A stretch of DNA of 64,000 nucleotides from an uncultured Methanomassiliicoccales archaeon (GTDB taxonomy: Archaea > Thermoplasmatota > Thermoplasmata > Methanomassiliicoccales > UBA472). The position numbers and the translations under genes are program-made. The DNA lies in the NCBI GenBank assembly GCA_963695345.1, contig OY968769.1, positions 2,464,001 through 2,528,000 on the forward strand, given 5' to 3'. A model generated the notes under the pieces. The model was not told the DNA's origin. It did no database searches and was given only the letters and a program-made list of their open reading frames with translations. Positions 2,217 through 59,629 of the stretch are shown piece after piece (positions within the stretch are counted from its first letter, which is position 1; every line of letters starts with the position of its first letter).

Positions 2217-4337
2217 CCGCCGGCCTTAGCATGTCCATGAGCTCGTCCAGGTCATGCGTCGGTTTGAGACAGCTGCCGTTCTGGCACAGATAGGCGGTCG
2301 GTCTTCCCGTCGATAGGGACCTTGTCCCTCAGGCTGGAGAGGTTCTTGCACTCGGCCAGTTTCTTTTCCCGAACCGGATGGAGCATCACGATCGAATAGG
2401 GAAGGTAGATGGAATTGACCGCGTCTATCATCGCCTTTGTCCGTTTATCGCCCGGGTCGCCCGCTATGACCAGTACCTGGGCTGGCTTCAGCATCATCCT
2501 CAGCCCCATGATGAAGAAGGACAATGCGTCGGGGACCTTGGACAGGTAGAAATCGTAGTACCTGGCGGAGCTAGTCGCCGCCTCGAGCAGCTTCTGGTCG
2601 TCGATCATCGAGGAAAGCAAGGCAAGGTCATAGGCCATGACCGAATTGGCCGAAGGCACGGCACCGTCGGATATCTCCTTGCTCAGATAGCACCAGGTCT
2701 TCCTTGGCCATGGAGTTGTAGAAGCCTCCCCTTTCGTCGCCGAACAGATCGATGGTCCTCCTCGTGTAATCGACCGCCCGGTTCAGGTAACGTACCTCGA
2801 AGGTGGCCTGGTAAAGCTCCAGCAGCCCCCAGATGTAGTAGGAATGGTCGGAGAGCATGCCGTTGACCCTCGCCTCCCCGTCACGGTACATATGGAACAG
2901 GCCGCCCTCCGGTGACGCCAGGAACCCTTCGATCGCATCCACCGCCCGCTTGGCCGCCTGCAGGTAACGTTCCTGCCCGAAGGCCCTTCCCGCTTTGGCC
3001 AAGGCGGCGATCATGAGGCCGTTCCAATCGGTCAGGACCTTGTCGTCACGGGCCGGCCGGATCCGCAGCTCGCGGACCGCCTTCAGCCTTTCCACGCATG
3101 TTTCCAGGTAGTCGGTCAGCTCGGCCGGGCTCATGTCGAACTTGGCCGCCAGGGTGGCAATGGTCGGCGGTCAGGTGCAGGAGGTTGCGATCGATGTCGC
3201 CCTCCCTGCCAGAACCGATGGTTCCCTCGGGATGCACATCGAAGCATTCCATGAAGATCTCGGGCCTCAGGTCCTTCAGCACATCCTCGATCTCTTCGTA
3301 GGTCCAGGTGTAGAACTTTCCTTCCACGCCCTCGCTGTCGGCATCCTCCGAGGCACAGAAGGCCCCCCTGCTCGGAAACCAGGTCCTTGAGGACATACTC
3401 GATCGTCGTCCTCTGCGACCTTCTTGAAATCGTCCTTGCCGGTGGCCTGATATGCCTCCACGTACGCGATGCAGATCAATGCCTGGTCATAGAGCATCTT
3501 TTCGAAATGAGGCATGATCCATTGTTCGTCGGTGGAATATCGGTGGAATCCCCCTCCGATATGGTCATGGATGCCCCCCAAGCATCATGTTGGTGAGGGT
3601 CCAGTCGGCCATTCTCAGGGCTTCGGCATCACCGGTGTCATGCCAATAGCGGAGAAGGAAGATGGATTTGTGCGGGATCGGGAACTTGGGCGACTTCTCG
3701 AATCCTCCGATACTTCTCCTCGTACGTCTTCTTCAAACCCCTAAAGGCATCATCCAGATAGTTGACGCTCGGCTCGCCCGGCCTGACGATCTCCATGGCG
3801 GCGATGTCCTTGACGATGGTCGAGGTGATGGATTGGATCTCTCCCTGCTCTTCCCTCCAGGCGGCGGAGATGGCATTCAGTACGGTGATTATATCCGACA
3901 TTCCGAACTGTCCGTTCCTGCGGAATGTAGGTCGCGGCGAAGAAAGGTATCTTCTCCGGCGTCATTACGATGGTCAGCGGCCAACCTCCGCCTCCGGTCA
4001 TGGCCTGGCATGCCTTCATGTAAAGCTCATCGATGTCCGGCCGCTCCTCCCGGTCGACCTTGATCGCCACATATTCCGCGTTGAGCGTTCTCGCGACCTC
4101 CTCGTCCTCGAACGACTCCCTCTCCATGACGTGACACCAATGGCAGGCCGAATAGCCTATGGAAAGGAAGATCGGCCTTCCGGTCCGCTTCGCCTCCGAG
4201 AAGGCCTCCTCACCCCAAGGATACCAATCCACCGGGTTGTGGGAGTGCATGATGAGATATGGGCTCTTCTCGTTCACAAATGGTTGGAGTGTTGCGGCTT
4301 CGGCTCCATGGACTACCTTCAGGGGAAGATTCATCAA
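2197..4337 (-). CDS. Thioredoxin-domain protein of the YyaL/SSP411 family, multiple frameshifts
   Basis: [59 protein letters not shown] and [13 protein letters not shown] are spread over consecutive ORF fragments. Confidence 0.9.
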
Positions 4338-4931
4338 ATGAATAAATTAACCTATGTATGCTGGATGATAGAAAGAGTGATTGTTCTAGGTCAAATAATC
4401 TAAAAAGGTAGAGGTCACGTGGGACCTCATACCTCGGTTTAGAAGGCGTTTGGAGTTGGTTGGGCCGGTGGCTCACCGCTCCTATGCGATCCTCTCCTCC
4501 TAAGAAAGTCCGCTTTTCGTTACCTCGAACGATTGCCAGTCTATCTTCGTCGGCTGGCTAACAAAGCCAATGCGTTGGTCGATATTTATGCTTTTCCGGC
4601 TTTCTTGGGTCGATTGGATTATGTTGACGTGTTTTTATTTGAAATATTTTCAGATCTGGCTTGTGAATCTGTGGATGGATTAACCATCCCGTTATTCGAT
4701 AATTATAGTTACTATAATATTAATGTGTGCATACGAACGAAGAAAAACGATCAGAGCATTTGGACGATATCCATTGGTTGTTCAAGGCATATTTTCCAGA
4801 TGCGCGGTCCTGACATGGCCTCGGCCGCTCAGATCAGGAGTCAATCCCTCTCCGATCGTCCGCCTGATCTTCTTCAATCTCGCGACCGCATGAAGGGGAT
4901 GTGCAGAGATGGACGCGGCTCGGTCATGAGC

Positions 4932-47496: not shown

Positions 47497-50112
47497 TTAC
47501 CTTGCCCCTTCTCCTGCCGTATTCCCTTTTAGCTTGGTCTCCAGTTTTGTTACTTCAATGTTCGCCATCACGCCGTCGATCTTCGTCGAAAGGTCGTTCA
47601 TGGTGAATGGCTTCTGCAACACATCAGCAAACCCATATTCCCGAGGGTGGGCCATTATCGGATCGTTCGAATATCCGCTGGAAACGATAACCCGGGCATC
47701 CGGGTCCATGGACCTGATCTCATGGATCGCCTCCTTCCCGCCCATACCCCCGCGTATGGTCAGGTCCATGATGACCGCGTCGAACGGCCGTCCTTCCGAT
47801 AGACGCCTCCGATAGGCCTTTATCGCCTCTTCTCCGGTCTTCGCGCATTCGACCAGATAGCCAAAGCTTTCCAGCATGGTCTGCAGAACGTCGAGGATCG
47901 ATTCCTCGTCATCCATCACCAGGATGCTCCCTTGTCTTTTCATATCGACCCTCAGTATTTCGATGGAAGGTTGGGCATCGTCCTCCGTTGCCGGCAGGAC
48001 AATGGAGAATTTGGTTCCTGCCCCGACCCTTGAATCGACCGTCACTATCCCCCCATGGTTCCTTACGATGGACCTGACGGTGGATAGTCCCAGACCGGTC
48101 CCTGTCGCCTTGGTGGTGAAGAAGGGATCAAAGATCTTGTCCATATGGTCCGGATGGATTCCTCCGCCCTCGTCCTTGATCTCTATCACGATATGGGAGC
48201 GATTCCCATCCTCCGAATGAAGGATGTCCGAATCAAAGTTCCTCATCTCGATGAAAAGGTTGCCGCCGCGGGGCATGGCCTGCATCGCGTTGATGACGAG
48301 ATTGTTAATGACCTGTTCTATCTGGATGGGATCCGCCGATATCATGTGCAGCCCGCTGTCTATGTCATAGACGGGGACGAACTGGGAACCGGCAAGCACG
48401 AATTCGACGGTTGAGGGGACCAGGGCCTTGAGGTCGACCACTTCTTTGATCGGCTGCCCTCCTTTGGAGTAGGTCAGCAGCTGCTGTGTCAGGTTCCTCG
48501 CCCTCATGGCTGAACTGACCGCCTCTTGCAGGCGGAGAACATACTTCGCGTCCTCCGGATGCTCAAGCATGGCGATCTCGGTGTTGCTGACGATGGAGGC
48601 CAACATGTTGTTGAAATCATGCGCGATCCCTCCAGCCAGGACTCCCAGGGATTCGAGCTTCTGATTCCTGGCCATCTCCTGCTCGAGCCGCTGGCGCTCG
48701 GTGATGTCGATGCCCACGGCCTGGACCTCCTGTAGCGAGCCCGCGCCGTCGTAGATGCCCTTCGCTCTCCAAAGAATGTTCTGGGTTCGCCCGTCCGGCC
48801 TCGAAATGACGTGCTCGTACTCTCCGACCGGGTTCCCCGGCGTCATTGCGGATATGAACTTGTTCAATCCCCGGGAATCCCAGAAGGTTGGAAACTGATA
48901 GACGTTCAGCTCGCTAAGCGGGATCCCTATCTTGGCGAGGTATTGCTCGACGACCCGATTGGCGAAGGTGACCTTGCCGTCCGGACGGAAGGAGACAATG
49001 GCCTCGGTCTGGTTGTCGACCACCATCCGGTACTTGCGCTCGCTCTCAGCCAGCTTCTCCTGGGCCTCAGCCTTCCTCATGAGCTCCTCTATCTTTTTGC
49101 GCTCGGTAAGCTCGTGCAGGACCACCAGGTTTCCCAGGCTCGCGGTGTAGCCGATCTTGTATTCCTTGATGTTCACCTCAAAGCTCCGTCCATGCGGATC
49201 GGTGACCTCCCGGGGGAGGTCCCTGATATCGGTCGGATAAGGAAGGCCCTTGAAGTACGGGATCGTTGCGAAAACATCGGGGAAAGGCTTCCCGATGACC
49301 TCCTTGGCCTGGTCTCCCAGATATTCTTTGCAGGCTTGATTGAGGACCATCACCCGGCCGCGGGAATCGATGGTGATTATATTGTCCTGGATCACGTCCA
49401 GCATCTTCTCCTTGCTGGCCGGCGCAAGGTCGAAGACTCCGAATTTGAAAGAGTAAAGGTAGATGGCGGCCACCGATATGGCATAGGCGAGATTGTCCGG
49501 ATCGACCGCGTTAAGGTCCTGATAGAAGTAAGAGGCGAATATGAAGGAATGGATCAGCACCACGCCTCCCAGGAAAGTGAACGCCAAGCCCTTGGAGCCA
49601 TCCCAGTAAACATATAGGAAAAGGTAGAAGGCGAAAACAGTTCCAACGATATCGAAATATGCGATCCAGAGGAAACCGATGATCGACTGGTTGACGATCA
49701 ATATGGGGCCTGACATCGATTGGCTGAAGGTAAGCGCCTGAGAGCTTGTGAACAGGTGGAACCACGGATCGGTGAGGATGGCGAACGTGGCCAGTGCCGG
49801 AACCGTTAGCAACGGGAAGAAAACTTTCTCCTTGAAGGGATCGTATCGCTGGGTTATCTCCAACACCATGAACAGGAAACAAGTGAAGATGACGATGAAG
49901 AGCAATGAAGAAACATAGTAGAGATTGCTCTTTTCCTCGAGCGTGTCAGAGTAGAGCTGGATGATCTCAACCAGGCAAGCCACCGAGGTCAAAGGGAGCA
50001 TGACGAGACCGGCCTTGATCATCAAAGGGCGGCGACCCATGATGATGCTGAAGATCCACATGTTGAGGAACAATAAAATGGACAGGGCGGCTAGAAAGAC
50101 CTCGAAGAGCAT
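47497..50112 (-). CDS. Hybrid kinase: 7TM sensor-PASx2-HisKA-HATPase-REC
   Basis: N-terminal TMs, LAGGIAHDFNN, GTGLGL, ILVMDDE..MDLTIRGG..KPF. Confidence 0.92.
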   Translation of the reverse strand: MLFEVFLAALSILLFLNMWIFSIIMGRRPLMIKAGLVMLPLTSVACLVEIIQLYSDTLEEKSNLYYVSSLLFIVIFTCFLFMVLEITQRYDPFKEKVFFPLLTVPALATFAILTDPWFHLFTSSQALTFSQSMSGPILIVNQSIIGFLWIAYFDIVGTVFAFYLFLYVYWDGSKGLAFTFLGGVVLIHSFIFASYFYQDLNAVDPDNLAYAISVAAIYLYSFKFGVFDLAPASKEKMLDVIQDNIITIDSRGRVMVLNQACKEYLGDQAKEVIGKPFPDVFATIPYFKGLPYPTDIRDLPREVTDPHGRSFEVNIKEYKIGYTASLGNLVVLHELTERKKIEELMRKAEAQEKLAESERKYRMVVDNQTEAIVSFRPDGKVTFANRVVEQYLAKIGIPLSELNVYQFPTFWDSRGLNKFISAMTPGNPVGEYEHVISRPDGRTQNILWRAKGIYDGAGSLQEVQAVGIDITERQRLEQEMARNQKLESLGVLAGGIAHDFNNMLASIVSNTEIAMLEHPEDAKYVLRLQEAVSSAMRARNLTQQLLTYSKGGQPIKEVVDLKALVPSTVEFVLAGSQFVPVYDIDSGLHMISADPIQIEQVINNLVINAMQAMPRGGNLFIEMRNFDSDILHSEDGNRSHIVIEIKDEGGGIHPDHMDKIFDPFFTTKATGTGLGLSTVRSIVRNHGGIVTVDSRVGAGTKFSIVLPATEDDAQPSIEILRVDMKRQGSILVMDDEESILDVLQTMLESFGYLVECAKTGEEAIKAYRRRLSEGRPFDAVIMDLTIRGGMGGKEAIHEIRSMDPDARVIVSSGYSNDPIMAHPREYGFADVLQKPFTMNDLSTKIDGVMANIEVTKLETKLKGNTAGEGAR

Positions 50113-50688: not shown

Positions 50689-51315
50689 TTACTCGATCTC
50701 GAACTTCTCCATCAACAGTTTCTCGGTATCGCGGTCCGGAATGTAGATGAAATATGCAGGGAATCTTTGCTTTTCCGTTATGAAGTGGGTCTTGATGATG
50801 ACCAGATTCTCATAGTCCTCCGACGCCATCAAAGCCGGGTATTCCATCACCGCGCTGAGCATCCCGACGGCGATTCCGGGAGGGGTGGGAAGTATGGTTA
50901 TCCCGAGGAAACCCGAGATGGCGTTCAGGTATGCTGACGCGCATATGTTGCCGATCTCTGCTATCGCCTCGCGGTCCTCCTCGTTGAACGCCCGGGACTC
51001 GTCATGGTTCTGGGAGAACAGCATGTCGGTCATCTGCATGGCCACCTTCTCCGTGAGGATCAGAAGCATGCTCCCCTTGTCTTTTCCATTCGCTCCAAGG
51101 TAGACAGCGACTACGGGTTGTTCCGGCTCTCCCAGGACGTACGGTGCCTCCAAGGTCTTGCAGACAAAGCATTCCGGTACATCGACCAGGATGTCCTGGT
51201 GCAGCATCGTCGTCAGCGCTGTCGAGGCGTGCGAGGCCCCGATGTTACCGATCTCGCGTAGAGCGTCGATCTGGTCGGCTGTGTATGTTGATTTTCTGTT
51301 GGTTGTGTTTTCCAT
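50689..51315 (-). CDS. cheC: CheC-family receiver phosphatase
   Basis: Two catalytic motifs, DALREIGNIGASHA and EAIAEIGNICASAY, plus PTPP. Confidence 0.9.
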   Translation of the reverse strand: MENTTNRKSTYTADQIDALREIGNIGASHASTALTTMLHQDILVDVPECFVCKTLEAPYVLGEPEQPVVAVYLGANGKDKGSMLLILTEKVAMQMTDMLFSQNHDESRAFNEEDREAIAEIGNICASAYLNAISGFLGITILPTPPGIAVGMLSAVMEYPALMASEDYENLVIIKTHFITEKQRFPAYFIYIPDRDTEKLLMEKFEIE

Positions 51316-51438
51316 CTCTAATCCGCCCTTTTCATCCAGACCTTCTGTGACATGAATCCACTGAATCGACGCCGACATCTAGAAGGCCAGGTCCAGGGCC
51401 GTAAATGCCGGGAAGGAAGGGGTTTAGATCGACTATGA

Positions 51439-52029: not shown

Positions 52030-53346
52030 TCAGCTCGTGATCGCCCCTGCGCTCCTACGAAATCGGACAATTGCCACCACGATCATCATTTGACGATCGG
52101 GGTTATGTCGATATTGAACATCTCTGCTCCAGTCCTCGTTGCCGAGGCATCCGCCCGAGCATATCCCCGCATAAGGGCAATCGCAGGACGGCCTTCTCCG
52201 AAGCGCGACCATGTCCTTCGAGTGCCAAAGGTCCAGAATCCTTTGGTCCTTGATATTGCCGATCGTCTGGTCCAGATTACCGCACGCCCTTACCTCCCCA
52301 TCGGCGCTGATGTACATCAGCGACCTTCCAGCAGGGCATCCGTAGATGGTGGCATCGCAGCAGACCGGACCGTAGGGCGGGAACCCTCCCCCTTCGATGT
52401 TCAGACCGTCCGGGCCGCTCTCCCGGAAGACCCGTATCCTGTCTGACATTTCCACCTTGTCCTCCCTGTCCCATTGGTCCAGTTTGCTGCCTCTGCCTTT
52501 GGAGAACAGAACAAGAAAGCGCAGGGAAGGTACATCCAGGCTACTTGCCAGTCGGATCATGTCATCCATCTGATGCACGTTGGCATCCATGACGGTGCAG
52601 GAGATGTTCAGGGAGCCGACCCCATGCTTCCTCAGCAGCCTGACGGCCTCGCAAGCCCTGGAAAAGGCCCCTGACCTGCCAACGATGGCATCGTGGGTAC
52701 TTTCGTTCGCCCCATGGATGCTTACCTGAACCGAGTCGAATAGGATCGCCATCTTCTCAGCCAGGGCGTCATCCACCAACAGACCATTTGTGCTCGTGGA
52801 AAGGGTCCTGATCCCCGACATCCTGGCCAAGGTGGCTAGCTCGATGAAGGAGGGATTGCAGGTGGGCTCGCCGCCCATGAACGACATTTCCGGAATCCTG
52901 AGCTCACCAGCCTGTTGTATGATATCCACATAGTCCTGTAAGGAGAGGCCGCTCTCGGCGGATGCTGGAGATGCTTCCCTCGAGCAATGGATGCAACGCA
53001 GATTGCATTTCTTGGTGATGTCCAACTCAATCTTCAGGGGCATCTGGAAAAACCATGTGGTCTCCATATCCCGGTATGATTCCGCATATCTTCGGTCTAT
53101 GTCGGGGACTATCAGTCTCCTAGAGGCGTCTGGCCCATATCCGATGAGGCCGTACCGATAATATTGTTCAAGCTCCTCTGCGTCTTGGTCGGACCGGGAT
53201 ATCTCCCAGAAGCTCTTTCCCGGGACCGATTTGAGAAGATCGACCGAATCCACCACATACTGTCCCCGATCGTTCTCGATGACATATCCGGCATTCATGG
53301 GGTAAACAAACAGATCATCCGTCAAATAGAGGGGCGCACCCTTCAT
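52030..53346 (-). CDS. Radical SAM enzyme with SPASM domain and RRE-like N-terminus (peptide maturase); start may extend to 53427
   Basis: CNLRCIHC, MGGEP, STNG, VQVSIHG; SPASM CPAG..ISADGEVRAC..IGNI..CDCPYAGICSGGC. Confidence 0.9.
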   Translation of the reverse strand: MKGAPLYLTDDLFVYPMNAGYVIENDRGQYVVDSVDLLKSVPGKSFWEISRSDQDAEELEQYYRYGLIGYGPDASRRLIVPDIDRRYAESYRDMETTWFFQMPLKIELDITKKCNLRCIHCSREASPASAESGLSLQDYVDIIQQAGELRIPEMSFMGGEPTCNPSFIELATLARMSGIRTLSTSTNGLLVDDALAEKMAILFDSVQVSIHGANESTHDAIVGRSGAFSRACEAVRLLRKHGVGSLNISCTVMDANVHQMDDMIRLASSLDVPSLRFLVLFSKGRGSKLDQWDREDKVEMSDRIRVFRESGPDGLNIEGGGFPPYGPVCCDATIYGCPAGRSLMYISADGEVRACGNLDQTIGNIKDQRILDLWHSKDMVALRRRPSCDCPYAGICSGGCLGNEDWSRDVQYRHNPDRQMMIVVAIVRFRRSAGAITS

Positions 53347-53482
53347 TGAGATCTCCTTTCCTTCGCCGGTATGGGAGATCTCGGGTATCGAACAGGGGAG
53401 ATACTGCTCATTCTTGAATTGCATCATGATTCAACCTGCTGGCGATGTCGATTATAGAGGACTGCCAAACAACCGTTCCAGA

Positions 53483-53791
53483 CTATTTCCTTATCTGAAC
53501 CCCTTTTGACTTGAAGTATTCCGCAACAGAATCCTTGTTCATGCTGATGTACTCGGATACCAGATCCTGACGGTCATTGATCTTGATCGAGAAGTCGTCA
53601 CCGGCACACCCGAATCGATCCATCTCGGCCGGGCATTTTCCTTCTCTGCAACAACCCTTGTCTTTGCAGCACCCCTGGTCCCCGACGCAACCGCAATCAT
53701 CGGCCCCCACCGGACCGATCCCCGCTCCTATCTTTTTCGTCGCCCTGACCTTTGTCGACGATCTGATGGCTTCTGTGGCAGTTCTTGGCAT
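53483..53791 (-). CDS. Cys-rich 102-aa peptide, candidate RiPP precursor
   Basis: Lies directly upstream of the rSAM/SPASM gene on the same strand; core DDCGCVGDQGCCKDKGCCREGKC..GC with 8 Cys. Confidence 0.75.
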   Translation of the reverse strand: MPRTATEAIRSSTKVRATKKIGAGIGPVGADDCGCVGDQGCCKDKGCCREGKCPAEMDRFGCAGDDFSIKINDRQDLVSEYISMNKDSVAEYFKSKGVQIRK

Positions 53792-53813
53792 GATTATAAG
53801 TCTGAATCCACGA

Positions 53814-53821
53814 TATTTATA
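53814..53821 (-). promoter_or_regulatory. TATA box (TATAAATA) about 23-30 nt upstream of the precursor ATG, implying a leaderless mRNA
   Basis: Plus-strand TATTTATA at 53814-53821 within an AT-rich intergenic region. Confidence 0.5.
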
Positions 53822-53997
53822 CATATTCATGGTTAGGCAATAATCTACCCAATTTGGATTACGAATGCCACTAAAATATTAAAGAAGATTTCATCATAAA
53901 CAAGTTATTCTTCTTCTATTGATGTATAGTGAAAATTGATTTCCCAATCATATCGGCCTTGTTTGTCATCAATTCCTGACTACATCAATCTCGTACC

Positions 53998-54492
53998 CTA
54001 TGGCAGGTTATTTAGAAGTGCTCTCTCCACCCGAACGGCAGCCGCCTCCACCTCGGGGGTCAGTCCCTCGCCGAAGTCCACGTTCTTCGGTTCGATCAGC
54101 AACAAGGCGATCCTTGCTCCGGTCAATGTGCTTACGTAATCGCAGAAGACCCTGAGGGGAAGGGTATGAGTGGAGATCGATGGGACATTGACCACCTCCT
54201 CAGCCTCGTACAGATGGGCGGTGCCTGGCTCAAGTCCGAGCAATGCCGCGTCAACGAGGAGCACATGGGAGGGGCTGATCGCCACGATCTCGTCAACGAA
54301 GCTCTCCGGTACTGTCTCGCATTCGATCAGGTGGACCGATCCCGAGACCTTGTCCTGGAGATCCTCCACGATCCTCACCCCGACGTAATCATCGGAGCGG
54401 ATCGAGTTGCCTATACCGGCCACCACGACACTGGTCGCGCCGTTTAGCCAGTCCCTCAGTTCTTCCTTCATTTCCTGGGTGTGCTGGTTCAA
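53998..54492 (-). CDS. hycI: Hydrogenase maturation endopeptidase (HycI type)
   Basis: VAGIGNSIRSDDYVG, ETVPESF, LVDAA, STHTLPL, FGEGLTPEV; GGAGG before the TTG start. Confidence 0.92.
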   Translation of the reverse strand: MNQHTQEMKEELRDWLNGATSVVVAGIGNSIRSDDYVGVRIVEDLQDKVSGSVHLIECETVPESFVDEIVAISPSHVLLVDAALLGLEPGTAHLYEAEEVVNVPSISTHTLPLRVFCDYVSTLTGARIALLLIEPKNVDFGEGLTPEVEAAAVRVERALLNNLP

Positions 54493-54925: not shown

Positions 54926-55147
54926 GTAGCCCCCGGGCCGCCTTTCGGGTCGCCTTAATGGATGTGGTTATTTAATCGATGCGTCCGACTCTTCGTATGT
55001 GGCTGAACGCGAATGCTTGGACGAACCGCCCTGGACAGCAACGAGAACCATGACCTGTCTTACACCTGCAGATGTGCAGAAAGAAATGAGGACCATGGAC
55101 GAGCCAGCAAGAATATCTTAATATGGCATCACCCAATAGCTATTTTA

Positions 55148-56077
55148 ATGGACTACGACCTGGTCATCATCGGGGGCGGGCCAGCCGGTCTTACGGCGGG
55201 CATCTGCGCGGTGCAAAGCAGGATCCGTACCGTCATCATCGAAGCCGCCGAGGCCGGAGGACAGCCAGGCGTTCTCTATCCGGAGAAGGAGATCCACAAC
55301 TTCCCCACCTCCCAGGCGGTGACCGGCAGGGACATTTCGCGGAGTTTCGTGGAGCACGCCCTGAACAAGGGCTGCATCATCAAAGAGAACGAGACGGCCG
55401 AGGACATTCTCGACATTCCCGACGGCTTCCGGGTCGTAACGACCAAGGGATCGTACACCACCACCGCGGTCATCGTCGCCATAGGCAACGGGTTCTTCAT
55501 TCCCAAGAAACTGGACATACCGGGAGCCGCTGAGCTCGAGGGCAGGGGGGTTTACTACATGATGCCCCCAAAGAAGGAATTCCTCGGGAAAAAGGTCATG
55601 TTCATCGGAGGGGGCAACTCCGCGCTCGAGATGGCCCTGATGGTCCATGAGATCGCCGAAACATGCATTGTGCACCGGGGCGGAACGTTCCGGGCCGACC
55701 ATTGCTTCATCGAGAGGGTGGAGGAATCCCATATCCGGACACGCATGAACGCCCAGCTCCTGAGGATCGAAGGGGATGGCAAGGTGGAGAGGGTCGTGCT
55801 GAGGGTCGGGGATGCGGAGGAGGAGGTCCCGGTGGACATGGTGGTCATCAAGGTCGGCATGACCCCGGAACCGGAACACCTGAAGCGTTGGAACCTGGAC
55901 CTGGAGGGAGAAGGAATCCGGGTCAGTCAGCAGATGATGACCTCCCGGAAGGGCGTGTTCGCGGCCGGGGACGCCGTCACCTATCCAGGCAAATACCGGC
56001 AGATAGTCACAAGCTGCAGCGAGGGGGCGACCGCCGCCAACTCCGCGATCAAATACGTCAAGAAGATCACCGTCTAG
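55148..56077 (+). CDS. TrxR-fold NAD(P)/FAD oxidoreductase lacking CxxC (YumC-type ferredoxin-NADP+ reductase-like)
   Basis: IIGGGPAG, GGQ..LYPEK.I, GGGNSA, HR..FRA, GVFAAGD; RGVYYMMP in place of the CxxC. Confidence 0.85.
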   Translation: MDYDLVIIGGGPAGLTAGICAVQSRIRTVIIEAAEAGGQPGVLYPEKEIHNFPTSQAVTGRDISRSFVEHALNKGCIIKENETAEDILDIPDGFRVVTTKGSYTTTAVIVAIGNGFFIPKKLDIPGAAELEGRGVYYMMPPKKEFLGKKVMFIGGGNSALEMALMVHEIAETCIVHRGGTFRADHCFIERVEESHIRTRMNAQLLRIEGDGKVERVVLRVGDAEEEVPVDMVVIKVGMTPEPEHLKRWNLDLEGEGIRVSQQMMTSRKGVFAAGDAVTYPGKYRQIVTSCSEGATAANSAIKYVKKITV

Positions 56078-56845: not shown

Positions 56846-59629
56846 TCACGCCGGTCTATGGCCGGAGTGGGCTGGCAACCTCCCCTCGATCGGGATGGTG
56901 AAATAGAAGGTGGCCCCCCGTCCTGGTTCCGACTCCACCCATATCTGTCCACCGTGCCTTTCCACGATCCTCTTGCAGATGGCCAGTCCAATGCCCGACC
57001 CTTTGTACTCGTCCCTCGTGTGCAGACGCTGGAACATCTCGAATATCCGACGCCTGTACTTCTGGTCGAACCCTATCCCGTTGTCCCTGACTGCGAATTT
57101 CCAGTATGATCCCGCCTTGAGCGCGGATATGTGCACCGTTGGTGGTTCTTCCCCATGGAACTTGATCGCGTTGGAGATCAGATTCTCCAGCAATTGGACC
57201 ATCTGGGTCTGATCGGCGCTGATGGTCGGCTGGCTCTCATAGGATATGATGGCGCCGGTCTCATTGACAGGATGCTCGAGATCCTTTAATACGATGGCCA
57301 TCACCGTTTCCATGTCGGTCGGCAGGAACTCTTTTCCTTGGGTCTCCACCCTTGAGTAGTCCAGTATGTCCTTGATCAGCCCTTTCATGTCATTGGCGCC
57401 GTCAATGGCGTGGGAGATATATTCCGTCGATCTCTTGTCCATTATGCCGCGGTTGCACCTCTCCAGAAGATGGAGATAGCTAGTTATCGTCCTCAAAGGA
57501 GCTTGCAGATCGTGCGAAGCGACGTAGGCGAACTGCTGAAGGTCGGCATTCGATCGGGCAAGCTCTTCCTGGACCTCTCGAAGTTCGGTGATATCCTGGG
57601 TGGTGGTCACTCCCCCGATGATCGCCTCTCGGTGGTCCTTGATCGGGGAGGCGGAAACCATGATCGTCCCGCCGGTGCCGTCGGACCTCTCGAGGTCGAA
57701 GACCCGTCCAATGACCGGTTTCCCATTCGTTATCGCCTCCCAAAGAGGCATTTCGTCCGGTTGAACTGGCCTGTCACTATCCTCCCACCTCAGGTCACGC
57801 TGTTGCGTTTCCTCAAGGAGTCGGACCTTCCTTTGCCTACCGCAGATATCATCTAGCCGGCTGTTCGTAAGCTCGGTCCTTCCGGAAACATCGGTGACCC
57901 GAACACCGACCGGGAGGGTATCGAGGATGGTCTTCAGACGGATCGTTTCCTCTTCCTTCCTTTGCACCAGTTCCTCTATCCGTTTCCTGGCGTTCACCTG
58001 CTCCGTGATGTCCATCATCGTGGCGACCCTTGCCGGTTCTCCATTGAAGTCCATGCTCCTGGCCTTGATCTGCACGAAACGAACATCGCCGTCCTTACGG
58101 ACCATATGCGCTTCGTACGCCTCGGCCATTGGATGCTGGACCACTTCTTCGACGATCTCCTGAGATTCTGGTGCGAATAATTCGTGGATCGATCTGCCGA
58201 TGATCTCGCCCCGGGAATATCTCATCTGCTCGAGGGCCGCTTTGTTGACATCAACGATCAACCCGTTCACATGTATCATGATGCCTTCGAATGTTGCCTC
58301 TGAGAGAGTGCGGAAACGCTCCTCACTTTCCCGCAGGTCATCCTGCGCCGCTTTCTGATCCGTGATGTCGGTAGATATGCCTAGGACCCCGATCACATTC
58401 CCTTCCTGATCTCTCAGTGGGACCTTGCTCGTGTCCAACCATCCGGTCTTGCCACCGGCCCTGCGCTGGCTTTCGACCACGTGGAGCTTCGCATTGCCGC
58501 TTTCCATCACCTGGCGGTCATCTGTCCTATATGCCTTCGCCTCGGTCCTGGCCCAGGGCATGTCAAAATCGGTCTTGCCAATGAATTCCGATGAATCGGC
58601 AAAACCGGCGTTCCTGGCGGATTCCCGGTTCGCCCCCAGGTACACCGAGTTCCGGTCCTTCCAGTATACGACCCCTGGGAAGTTGTCGAGGACTATCTTG
58701 AGCATCTGCTCCGAGCGCTGCAGCGCTTCCTCCACGTTCTTCCGCTTGGTGATGTCCTCATAGGTACCCAGAACTCCGATGACCTCTCCTTTGGAATCCC
58801 TGAGGGGAACCTTGCTGGTCTGCAGCCAACGGGTACCTCCATCGGATTGGATCTGCACCTCCTCGAAGTTGATCTTCGGTGAACCGCTCTCCATGACCTG
58901 GCGATCATCGGCCCGATAGGAGTCGGCGGAGTCACGCCATGCCAGTTCATGGTCGTTCCTCCCCACTATCTCGGCCGGGTCTGGTAGTCCTGCGTCGCGC
59001 GCCGCTATCTGATTGCAGCCCAGATAGTTCAGGTCCCGGTCCTTCCAGAACACCCGGACCGGAACGCTGTCCAGGACCAGTTGGAGCATCTGCTGGGAAC
59101 TTCGCAGAGCCTCCTCGGCCCTGACCTGTTCGGTAATATCCGTTACCACTCCGTCGATCCATTGGATTTCTCCGCCGGGGCCGGGGACGGCGGTGAATAT
59201 CAAGGAGCACACTATCGACGTACCATCTTTACGCCTCATCCTTACCTTGTGGTCCTTGACGCCACCTTCCTTTCTCAAAATGGAAAGCAATATTTCCCGA
59301 TCTCTCGGATCGCTGTAAAGTTCTATCGGGGTCACCTTCAATATCTCGGCGACGCTTTCGTAGCCGAATATCCTGGCCATCGCTGGGTTGGCTTGGATTA
59401 TGGGCTTGTTCCCAATCGCGCAGGTCTGATAGATCCCGATGTTGACGTTCTCCACCAGGGTCCTGAGCTTCTTCTCGCCTTCGGCCAACGCCCTATTGCC
59501 GCGTTCCAATTCGGCGATGCGTTCTTCGAGCTGGAGACCGGACAGTCCTATCTGCGACGCCCCTCCAGTACCGATCACCCTTTGGCGCAGGTCCCCGGCC
59601 CTTCGCAGATCATCAGGGTGCTCTTTCAT
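56846..59629 (-). CDS. Multi-PAS histidine kinase with Cph1-type kinase module
   Basis: Five PAS/PAC units; ELARSNADLQQFAYVASHDLQAPLR, NLISNAIKF, GSGIGLAIC. Confidence 0.93.
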   Translation of the reverse strand: MKEHPDDLRRAGDLRQRVIGTGGASQIGLSGLQLEERIAELERGNRALAEGEKKLRTLVENVNIGIYQTCAIGNKPIIQANPAMARIFGYESVAEILKVTPIELYSDPRDREILLSILRKEGGVKDHKVRMRRKDGTSIVCSLIFTAVPGPGGEIQWIDGVVTDITEQVRAEEALRSSQQMLQLVLDSVPVRVFWKDRDLNYLGCNQIAARDAGLPDPAEIVGRNDHELAWRDSADSYRADDRQVMESGSPKINFEEVQIQSDGGTRWLQTSKVPLRDSKGEVIGVLGTYEDITKRKNVEEALQRSEQMLKIVLDNFPGVVYWKDRNSVYLGANRESARNAGFADSSEFIGKTDFDMPWARTEAKAYRTDDRQVMESGNAKLHVVESQRRAGGKTGWLDTSKVPLRDQEGNVIGVLGISTDITDQKAAQDDLRESEERFRTLSEATFEGIMIHVNGLIVDVNKAALEQMRYSRGEIIGRSIHELFAPESQEIVEEVVQHPMAEAYEAHMVRKDGDVRFVQIKARSMDFNGEPARVATMMDITEQVNARKRIEELVQRKEEETIRLKTILDTLPVGVRVTDVSGRTELTNSRLDDICGRQRKVRLLEETQQRDLRWEDSDRPVQPDEMPLWEAITNGKPVIGRVFDLERSDGTGGTIMVSASPIKDHREAIIGGVTTTQDITELREVQEELARSNADLQQFAYVASHDLQAPLRTITSYLHLLERCNRGIMDKRSTEYISHAIDGANDMKGLIKDILDYSRVETQGKEFLPTDMETVMAIVLKDLEHPVNETGAIISYESQPTISADQTQMVQLLENLISNAIKFHGEEPPTVHISALKAGSYWKFAVRDNGIGFDQKYRRRIFEMFQRLHTRDEYKGSGIGLAICKRIVERHGGQIWVESEPGRGATFYFTIPIEGRLPAHSGHRPA

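Follow-up and report, generated by a model that had tools for sequence, protein, structure and literature searches.

The DNA analysed here is a stretch of 64,000 nt (the window) from contig OY968769.1 of assembly GCA_963695345.1, positions 2,464,001 to 2,528,000 of the forward strand, and comes from an uncultured archaeon of the Methanomassiliicoccales. At positions 52030-53830 of the window lie two neighboring genes, both read on the minus strand: the first encodes a Cys-rich peptide of 102 aa and the second a radical S-adenosylmethionine (SAM) enzyme with a SPASM domain (Table 1). Judging from the genes and from structural models, we regard the pair as a two-gene cassette of substrate and maturase, similar to those of peptides that are synthesized ribosomally and then modified post-translationally (RiPPs), and on balance it probably makes thioether cross-links. 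An initial annotation of this DNA, made from the letters alone, had listed features at 52030-53830 and left their strand unstated; all of them are present in the sequence, including the basic N-terminus, the IGAGIGPVGA linker and the eight Cys residues of the peptide. The host genome encodes McrA, which indicates a methanogen-type archaeon, and holds the peptide gene in a single copy. The GC content over the cassette (0.49-0.57) is near that of the flanks (~0.5-0.6) and does not clearly mark the cassette as an island.

The small open reading frame (ORF) can be read in a 115-aa form from its first ATG or in a 102-aa form. The 102-aa start is preferred since most full-length homologs begin with MP(R/K)T and the entry of this peptide in the protein collection searched below is itself 102 aa long. 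The TATA-like box that the initial annotation had seen ahead of the peptide is indeed there (TATAAATA, 53821-53814, 23 nt before the ATG). It falls inside the 13-codon extension of the 115-aa ORF, which also favors the shorter form, and its placement would fit an archaeal promoter giving a leaderless or near-leaderless mRNA. The promoter and terminator scan was built on a sigma-70 model and is uninformative for an archaeon; on the minus strand it listed no terminator-like site in the 55-nt spacer between the two genes. From their arrangement the peptide and enzyme genes are presumably co-transcribed.

The peptide can be divided into four regions. Residues 1-20 contain a (T/K)VR(A/L/F) motif, of which VRx aligns with peptides found beside a distant enzyme clade, and this region may serve as a leader. 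The core holds C33, C35, C41, C42, C47, C48, C53 and C62, and Cys makes up 7.8% of the whole peptide. In the AlphaFold2 model the mean predicted local distance difference test score (pLDDT) is 59.7, and residues 3-34, 49-51 and 55-63 are below 50 and predicted to be disordered. The C-terminal tail, which had been annotated as helical, is modeled as helices 66-73, 75-84 and 86-95 with pLDDT of 86-89. The alignment shows that C33, G34, C35, G40, C41, C42, K45, G46, C47, C48, G51, K52, C53, P54, A55, E56, C62, G64 and D65 are invariant in the archaeal-type clade; when bacterial members are included, C35, G40, C41, C42, G46, C47, C48, C53, F93 and G97 remain invariant. In the tail, Y81, N85, K86, V89, F93 and G97 show little or no variation.

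The core unit of the family is a hexapeptide repeat, D-x-G-C-C-x. Among 141 CC pairs in 52 family peptides, with near-duplicates included, Gly precedes the pair in 136, one of D, N, Q or E stands at position -3 in 133, and one of D, E, Q or N is found three residues past the first Cys in 119. These counts are not independent, as P0072, P0073 and P0074 are the same as, or close to, ORFs of the loci described below and P0084 is a variant of P0072. Three peptides were left out: P0096 (an unrelated repeat protein of 327 aa), P0080 (a fragment without the GCC region) and P0093 (a divergent sequence that has just one CC). Two unpaired Cys of the archaeal-type clade also have an invariant acidic residue at +3 (C53-P-A-E56 and C62-x-G-D65), which favors a Cys to +3 direction of cross-linking, like that of CrpA. 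No Pfam or NCBIfam model matched the peptide, including MftA-like and PqqA-like ones, and NCBIfam gave nothing credible for ten bacterial family peptides. An ESM Atlas search with the peptide returned no usable match, and a Foldseek search of its model (mean pLDDT as above) against PDB returned none.

The second gene product matches the Pfam models Radical_SAM (PF04055; 2.2e-22, 80.4 bits against a cut-off of 29.5) and SPASM (PF13186; 1.5e-9, 38.5 bits against a cut-off of 21.5, residues 364-417). An alignment of 43 homologs was used for the AlphaFold2 model and for a census of Cys residues. The model has a pLDDT of 92.2 and a predicted template-modeling score (pTM) of 0.89; it shows the barrel topology, and C141, C145 and C148 of the cluster motif are found in all 43 homologs. 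The residue after this motif, position 1 of the six CteB reference positions of catalytic-site proximity profiling (PMC10288494), is Ser in 31 of the 43, versus Phe in CteB and Tyr in StsB. Each of the six Cys in the SPASM domain is kept in 42-43 of the 43 homologs. The canonical SPASM motif has seven Cys, CX9-15GX4C..CX2CX5CX3C..C. In the window enzyme the spacing at residues 415/417 is C-x1-C versus the canonical C-x2-C, and there is no seventh Cys downstream either in this protein or in 34 of the 43 homologs (nine have any Cys there). The full SPASM motif claimed by the initial annotation has to be corrected accordingly: six of the seven canonical Cys are kept and the last one is missing. 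A candidate for the vacant ligand position is Cys12 in an E-Q-x-L-P-C motif near the N-terminus. The two homologs without it have only gaps at and before this position, which we read as N-terminal truncation, and the distant enzyme clade likewise keeps L10, P11 and C12 throughout. We suggest that Cys12 may complete the second auxiliary cluster as its fourth ligand, in place of the missing SPASM Cys.

Between Cys12 and the radical SAM core the model contains a small domain resembling a RiPP recognition element (RRE). An RRE is a PqqD-like winged helix of three strands and three helices that profiles can detect, and the leader binds to it as an added strand. By DSSP on the AlphaFold2 model, the domain has strands at residues 32-35, 39-44, 48-52 and 55-59 and helices at 63-66, 73-76 and 80-91. 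Thus the RRE-like region proposed earlier stands as a predicted fold at residues ~30-92, and its length of ~90 aa does not, since ~125 aa precede the core. The N-terminal domain alone gave no RRE or PqqD match at the sequence level in Pfam or among PDB sequences, with E-values at chance level (0.056 or higher). At its other end the window enzyme exceeds most homologs (446 aa) by 19 aa; this extension (residues ~447-465, 52030-52086, ..MMIVVAIVRFRRSAGAITS) is hydrophobic and then basic, has pLDDT below 50, and could be real or due to a shifted stop.

Table 1. Coordinates of the cassette, its parts and neighboring genes in the window.
Feature	Position	Strand	Basis or remark
TATA-like box TATAAATA	53814..53821	-	Read from sequence; 23 nt 5' of MPRT start codon
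Small ORF, longest form, 115 aa	53483..53830	-	Counted from first ATG
Cys-rich precursor-like gene, 102 aa	53483..53791	-	ORF, stop included; 16 homologs
Basic N-terminal region, putative leader, residues 1-20 MPRTATEAIRSSTKVRATKK	53732..53791	-	pLDDT <50, predicted disordered
Gly-rich linker IGAGIGPVGA, residues 21-30	53702..53731	-	Variable among homologs
Cys-rich core, residues 31-65, DDCGCVGDQGCCKDKGCCREGKCPAEM..GCAGD	53597..53701	-	8 Cys, five C-x-x-D/E spacings
C-terminal three-helix domain (follower, predicted docking element), residues 66-102	53486..53596	-	AlphaFold2
Spacer, peptide stop to enzyme start, 55 nt	53428..53482	-	Genes on same strand
Radical SAM/SPASM maturase gene (putative), 465 aa	52030..53427	-	Stop included; PF04055 and PF13186
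E-Q-x-L-P-C motif with Cys12, residues 7-12	53392..53409	-	C12 in 41/43 homologs
RRE-like domain, residues ~30-92, four strands then three helices	53152..53340	-	AlphaFold2 and DSSP
CxxxCxxC cluster motif CNLRCIHC, residues 141-148	52984..53007	-	Invariant in 43/43 homologs
SPASM domain, residues ~360-430: C364, G377-x4-C382, C415-x-C417-x5-C423-x3-C427	52138..52350	-	Pfam and Cys census
HTH_20/TrmB-type regulator, 123 aa	51439-51810	-	220 nt downstream of cassette, same strand
CheC/CheX-like phosphatase	50689-51378	-	
HycI-type hydrogenase maturation protease	53998-54492	-	
Pyridine-nucleotide-disulphide oxidoreductase	55013-56077	+	

The two genes travel together. In a collection of 5.8 billion proteins the peptide has 16 homologs, and a peptide profile run against 1.84 billion representatives gave 34 matches with E ≤1e-3 (15 of them ≤1e-10), at least one of which is spurious (P0096). 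Wherever the gene was called, the homologs carry no source name or are named 'hypothetical protein'. The 16 homologs, with their invariant Cys, Gly and tail residues, and the constant proximity of the enzyme speak against a chance ORF. The enzyme has 49 homologs at E ≤7.6e-62, followed by a gap to 2.2e-27. There is no enzyme ortholog in 40 related genomes, where the best match has 28% identity over residues 127-430 only and such matches are ordinary radical SAM/SPASM paralogs; we therefore reject the idea that the gene was inherited vertically within the genus. A scan of species-representative genomes yielded six true orthologs among the 20 best relatives kept: two from Methanosarcina, one on an archaeal contig, and one each from Desulfobaccales, Thermodesulfobacteriota and Acidobacteriota. 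Peptide homologs adjoin the enzyme at all six loci and in the window. The archaeal loci (L016, L017 and L018) have one peptide gene upstream of the enzyme, and in the bacterial loci the peptide genes are downstream, L019 having a tandem of three, L020 a single copy and L021 two. When the search started from the peptide, four of 284 Methanosarcinales genomes were positive, all four with the enzyme adjacent, and so was one of 401 genomes in the phylum of genome G042, that one being the seed. In the five genomes checked, the peptide is confined to the enzyme locus.

Taken together, all nine distinct ortholog loci carry both genes, with one to three peptide genes each: the window methanogen, four Methanosarcinales, the archaeal contig, and the Desulfobaccales, Thermodesulfobacteriota and Acidobacteriota loci. 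Two further loci, L124 (the same place as L017) and L121 (the same peptide sequence as L016), were not counted again, and the figure is descriptive rather than a statistic, as the genomes are few and akin. The check set with the initial annotation, which was whether enzyme homologs have similar peptides beside them, comes out in favor of the pair. A ribosomal precursor next to a modifying enzyme and co-occurrence of the two across taxa are what a RiPP-like system displays, as these loci do, and peptide genes that stand in tandem and have diverged are typical of RiPP precursors. The description of the family as archaeal is too narrow in view of the three bacterial lineages. There is no third gene common to the loci, whose neighbors are unrelated, and no transporter or protease adjoins the cassette, in agreement with the absence of a transporter reported earlier. 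Two side observations concern these loci. The contig of L018 (DATGZD010000147.1), labeled Ca. Sulfotelmatobacter and assigned to an acidobacterial metagenome-assembled genome, encodes archaeal-type genes beside the cassette, namely an aIF2-beta/eIF5-type domain (PF01873, 7.7e-34) and an archaeal DUF424 (ORFs 3583-4044 and 4016-4354), which indicates an archaeal contig that was probably binned into the wrong genome. A zinc-type alcohol dehydrogenase lies 5' of the cassette in L017 (1380-2396, Methanosarcina) and L019 (3827-4792, Desulfobaccales), with 30% mutual identity; since it occurs in only two of seven loci and at unequal distances, this is likely a coincidence.

More remote relatives give an indication of which part of the core matters. 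From metagenomes the 80 best loci were kept, among which L037-L040 alone (43-62% identity) are true relatives; they represent the distant enzyme clade, at ~35-39% identity. None of the 80 loci has a GCC-x3-GCC peptide or a match to the peptide profile. On manual reading, L037 (204-419) and L040 (338-577) have short unannotated upstream ORFs that end in CVGDYSCCG(R/H)VP and carry a V-R-(F/L)-(S/A)-N..R-(H)-P leader motif. In L038 a candidate peptide downstream of the enzyme (2190-2315) is cut by the contig end, and L039 has no recognizable peptide on manual reading. The sequence CVGDYSCC aligns with C35-VGDQG-CC42 of the window peptide, and the VRx motifs ~20 residues upstream align with each other as well. 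From this very small sample, the smallest module that is modified would be CVGDxxCC. One member of the distant clade is source-annotated as a putative MftC. The profile matches also include variant peptides: P0085, P0087, P0088, P0091, P0092 and P0100 form a GCC-repeat sister group with the tail ..LGI/VPVE(D/E)LV.RI..LDPKLLGA.., and P0090, P0094, P0095, P0097 and P0101 are tail-less and end soon after the GCC repeats. Both kinds retain the leader and the GCC repeats. The excluded P0096, from an AT-rich organism, has five tandem motifs (..NQDLVNNYLTQNKNEINKFFAQ..) resembling the tail consensus DLV..YI..NK..V..FF, which is probably convergent similarity of low complexity.

The complex of enzyme and peptide was modeled with three 4Fe-4S clusters and SAM. 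The interaction prediction score from aligned errors (ipSAE) is 0.81 (0.83, 0.78 and 0.81 in the separate runs) versus 0.00 for the best of three controls. Of 80 solved complexes 58 come up to this mark, as do two of 110 mismatched pairs, a rough guide in this case since custom alignments and ligands were used. The confident interface joins peptide residues 74-101 to enzyme residues 163-171, 193-203, 228-231 and 271. The seven tail residues that are conserved best all lie in the predicted interface (Y81, N85, K86, V89, F93 and G97) except K94. The model thus supports binding of the tail to the enzyme, and it lends substance to the internal core with a follower peptide that the initial annotation had inferred, in that a conserved folded tail is predicted to dock. 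The same model bears on a different explanation, which is that the peptide is an unmodified metallothionein-like, Fe-S or other metal-binding protein that partners or is co-regulated with the enzyme (for instance by donating clusters or sulfur, or as a chaperone) without being its substrate. Such a protein would also be Cys-rich, with vicinal CC pairs and carboxylates close by, and what docks in the model is the folded tail on an exosite rather than the core in the active site. We nevertheless consider this improbable, given the strict pairing at nine of nine loci in archaea and, in the opposite gene order, in bacteria, the restriction of the peptide to the side of the enzyme in five of five genomes, the several diverged copies per enzyme, and an enzyme architecture and structural neighbors that are those of peptide maturases.

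By fold, the enzyme falls among such maturases. The top Foldseek match is SkfB (6efn; E 9.3e-22, TM-score (TMt) 0.74), followed by SuiB (5v1s, 6.9e-20), CteB (5why, 3.0e-14), and then TigE and ChlB; all of the top matches are peptide-modifying maturases, and the alignments are near full length, including those with the RRE-bearing SkfB and SuiB. The family profile searched against PDB sequences also places SkfB first (4.6e-34). Curated families are less informative. NCBIfam lists 83 families for the enzyme and none is near its cut-off: AhbD (TIGR04545) scores 121.6 bits against 500 over residues 135-318 only, TIGR04053 112.3, NirJ2 108.6, MftC (TIGR03962) 106.9 against 265, StsB (NF045574) 100.4 against 625, PqqE (TIGR02109) 81.3 against 381, SbtM 76.9, AlbA (NF012164) 65 against 850, and SkfB (TIGR04403) 62.5 against 300. 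The known ranthisynthases score lower still, with 19.1 and 16.2 bits at the locus for the SCIFF maturase (TIGR03974, cut-off 425) and 20.5 bits for QhpD (TIGR03906, cut-off 453); the CrpC family (TIGR04463, cut-off 525) has no match at the locus, and its sole match in the genome, 14.7 bits, is elsewhere. The enzyme is below the SCIFF maturase, MftC and PqqE cut-offs and the peptide has no MftA-like or PqqA-like match, in line with the initial annotation, which had seen no SCIFF, mycofactocin or PqqA pattern.

AhbD as the best NCBIfam score, together with the source name 'Radical SAM domain heme biosynthesis protein' of the Methanosarcina siciliae members, might be taken to indicate an AhbD/NirJ-type enzyme of heme or heme d1 synthesis with an incidental small ORF next to it. 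This was already disfavored and we regard it as very improbable: the AhbD score is far below the cut-off and restricted to residues 135-318, the enzyme has an extra N-terminal domain of 125 aa with a conserved LPC motif, its adjacency to the peptide is obligatory, the genome has other radical SAM/SPASM paralogs (for example G000:C1:1875667-1876596), and one would not expect a housekeeping heme enzyme to be missing from 40 of 40 related genomes. The spread of scores over many chemistries is more troublesome, as the same pair could perform a reaction other than thioether formation, such as thiooxazole formation (as by SbtM), epimerization, C-C or C-O cross-linking, or the making of a cofactor on a peptide scaffold (as by PqqA/PqqE or MftA/MftC). 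The bits for MftC, PqqE and SbtM, the putative MftC annotation in the distant clade, and the rank of SuiB, a C-C cross-linker, as second-best structural match all fit such an outcome. We think it unlikely, since the invariant residues of the core are Cys and Gly and not aromatic or C-terminal residues, a unit that recurs would sooner go with a recurring cross-link than with one cofactor, and genes of a cofactor pathway (a peptidase, a flavoenzyme, or equivalents of PqqB/C/D or MftB/D/E/F) are unseen among the neighbors examined.

Thioether cross-links are favored by the invariant spacing of Cys and acidic residues and by analogy with CrpA and CrpC. In the mechanism we propose, the enzyme would hold its substrate mainly through the C-terminal helical domain, docked on the outer helices of the radical SAM barrel, with a possible further contact between the N-terminal VRx segment and the RRE-like domain. 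The flexible Cys repeats would be threaded into the active site, where 5'-deoxyadenosyl radical chemistry would modify the cysteines. The likeliest product would contain short-range thioethers from Cys sulfur to carbon, with the recurring Asp, Glu, Asn or Gln three positions away as the prime acceptor candidate. Since the nine loci have no protease or exporter and the tail is folded, the product most likely stays uncleaved and intracellular, as a stapled mini-protein whose leftover thiols and carboxylates could serve as metal ligands. From genes and models we infer the part of the peptide as substrate, the thioether chemistry, the residue that accepts, and what becomes of the product and what it does. 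The new ranthipeptide-like family proposed earlier holds as far as a dedicated, conserved pair that fits no curated family is concerned, and ranthipeptide-like amounts to an analogy in C-x-x-D/E spacing.

The product could instead be a classical secreted RiPP, in which an unlinked protease trims leader and follower and the cross-linked core is exported as an antimicrobial or a signal. The diverged precursor genes that stand two or three in a row in L019 and L021 would be in keeping with this, as would the tail-less members P0090, P0094, P0095, P0097 and P0101, the C-terminal core of the distant-clade peptides, which is like that of ordinary RiPPs, and a sporadic distribution (0 of 40 related genomes, one of 401 in the phylum of G042, four of 284 Methanosarcinales) that suggests horizontal transfer. 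This outcome appears rather doubtful to us, considering that no protease, exporter or immunity gene is common to the loci, that the tail is folded and strongly conserved, and that the N-terminus of the peptide, read from sequence, has no signal-peptide-like hydrophobic stretch.

Several results weigh against the reading of the pair as substrate and thioether-forming maturase. In the complex model the runs share at least 19% of contacts, the pLDDT of the partner is at least 43 and its fold is uncertain; it gives no confident position for the Cys core in the active site or for the N-terminus on the RRE-like domain, of which residue 53 alone belongs to the interface. The absence of the canonical seventh SPASM Cys leaves the number of clusters uncertain, and as the N-terminal domain has no sequence-level RRE match, its RRE nature is judged from topology. 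With a period of six residues, an acidic residue at +3 of one Cys is also at -3 of the next, which makes the direction of cross-linking ambiguous, and in bacterial peptides the last CC is often not followed by an acidic residue. The shared CVGDxxCC module was found in two full peptides and a truncated one, and L039 has none. By sequence the enzyme is far from the known ranthisynthases, as judged with the SCIFF maturase, QhpD and CrpC models; the top curated scores belong to enzymes of other chemistries (AhbD, TIGR04053, NirJ2, MftC and the sactisynthase StsB), and as all are far below the cut-offs, the type of reaction is unreadable from homology.

A more far-reaching version would make the family a new GCC-repeat class. 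Here the stapled D-x-G-C-C units would each contain one thioether made by the radical SAM enzyme and leave one free thiol, docking of the follower on an exosite of the barrel would replace or supplement leader-RRE binding, and Cys12 would be borrowed for the second auxiliary cluster of a SPASM domain that has lost its last Cys, three traits whose combination would be new. The product would be an intracellular, metal-binding mini-protein stapled by thioethers, and the cassette would pass by horizontal transfer between methanogens and anaerobes of the sulfate-reducing or acidobacterial kind. We put this forward as a speculative combination, the whole of which is rather unlikely to hold.

The closest worked case is CrpA/CrpC. 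According to the available part of the report (PMC13692751), CrpC of Methanococcus voltae, an RRE-radical SAM-SPASM enzyme, forms ranthionine thioethers at C-X-X-Q/D-type motifs of the uncleaved Cys-rich protein CrpA, and domain-domain contacts supplement the contact between leader and RRE. The cassette resembles it in the methanogen host, in an enzyme with RRE(-like), radical SAM and SPASM domains beside a Cys-rich repeat protein, and in motifs of the C-x-x-(D/Q) type; it can also be likened to CrpA/CrpC in the traits which that part of the report describes, namely no cleavage, no exporter, recognition beyond a short leader and a suspected metal-related role. The differences, within the same part, are of size and architecture. 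The window peptide has 102 aa and a 6-residue GCC repeat versus 28.8 kDa and a 17-residue motif repeated ten times in CrpA; its conserved folded domain is C-terminal to the core, and there is no CrpB-like second protein. CrpC has seven SPASM Cys ligands and the window enzyme six, and the latter is unmatched by TIGR04463 (rSAM_vs_C_rich). The screen described in PMC13692751 was confined to proteins of ≥100 aa with ≥10% Cys, compared with 7.8% Cys in the window peptide.

In QhpC, the gamma subunit of quinohemoprotein amine dehydrogenase, QhpD cross-links Cys to Asp or Glu (PMC13692751). QhpD is likewise a radical SAM/SPASM enzyme, with an RRE where the window enzyme has an RRE-like domain, and its intraprotein Cys-to-Asp/Glu thioethers are made in a small protein that remains a component of a functional protein (PMC13692751). 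Unlike QhpC/QhpD, the window has no dehydrogenase subunits or QhpE-type protease nearby, its core is a repeat, and the QhpD model gives 20.5 bits against 453. With SCIFF/CteB and PapA/PapB the cassette shares a Cys-rich core, acidic acceptors (here candidate ones) at short spacing and an enzyme with RRE(-like), radical SAM and SPASM domains, and CteB is a significant structural match. The motif of PapA is Cys-X3-Asp. Unlike these systems, the window peptide carries its core inside the chain, ahead of a folded domain, the core has vicinal CC pairs, and the family spans archaea and bacteria. SkfA/SkfB and StsA/StsB are similar in that SkfB is the best match by sequence and fold and StsB scores 100.4 bits; SkfB and StsB form thioethers from Cys sulfur to C-alpha on a ribosomal peptide. 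Sactipeptide precursors differ in being short, with a C-terminal core, usually a hairpin topology, no GCC repeat and no follower domain.

A radical SAM/SPASM maturase with a Cys-rich precursor is therefore known as a kind, and what is new is an uncurated family. It is set apart from the known members by a core of GCC hexapeptides, by the placement of this core within the chain, by the conserved folded follower predicted to dock on the barrel, and by the SPASM variant with its invariant N-terminal Cys. A search of open papers found no literature on this peptide/enzyme family or on the accessions WP_011021323, AAM04721, WP_048170508 and A0A0E3L7Z8; the supplementary tables of PMC13692751, which list Cys-rich proteins associated with radical SAM enzymes, might include relatives. 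Worked cases of enzymatic thioether stapling of proteins, as opposed to short peptides, are very few (QhpC, and CrpA since 2026). If the proposed chemistry is true, the cassette would add a compact two-gene case with a substrate of 102 aa, small enough for intact-mass mass spectrometry and nuclear magnetic resonance, and follower docking on the barrel as well as a missing seventh Cys paired with an invariant N-terminal Cys would be new for SPASM maturases. The family is rare, uncurated and easily missed. One ortholog, WP_011021323.1, is present in Methanosarcina acetivorans. This species is genetically tractable.

The surroundings of the cassette in the window were also inspected. None of the four neighboring genes in Table 1 is conserved at the other loci, and the HTH (helix-turn-helix) regulator and the HycI-type protease, both tried as members of the cassette, were rejected on this ground. 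Further out, two very large ORFs of 871 aa (47497-50112) and 927 aa (56846-59629), both on the minus strand, resemble PAS-domain sensor histidine kinases, judged from their translations. By the same reading, the 871-aa ORF has an apparent N-terminal membrane domain and a C-terminal receiver.

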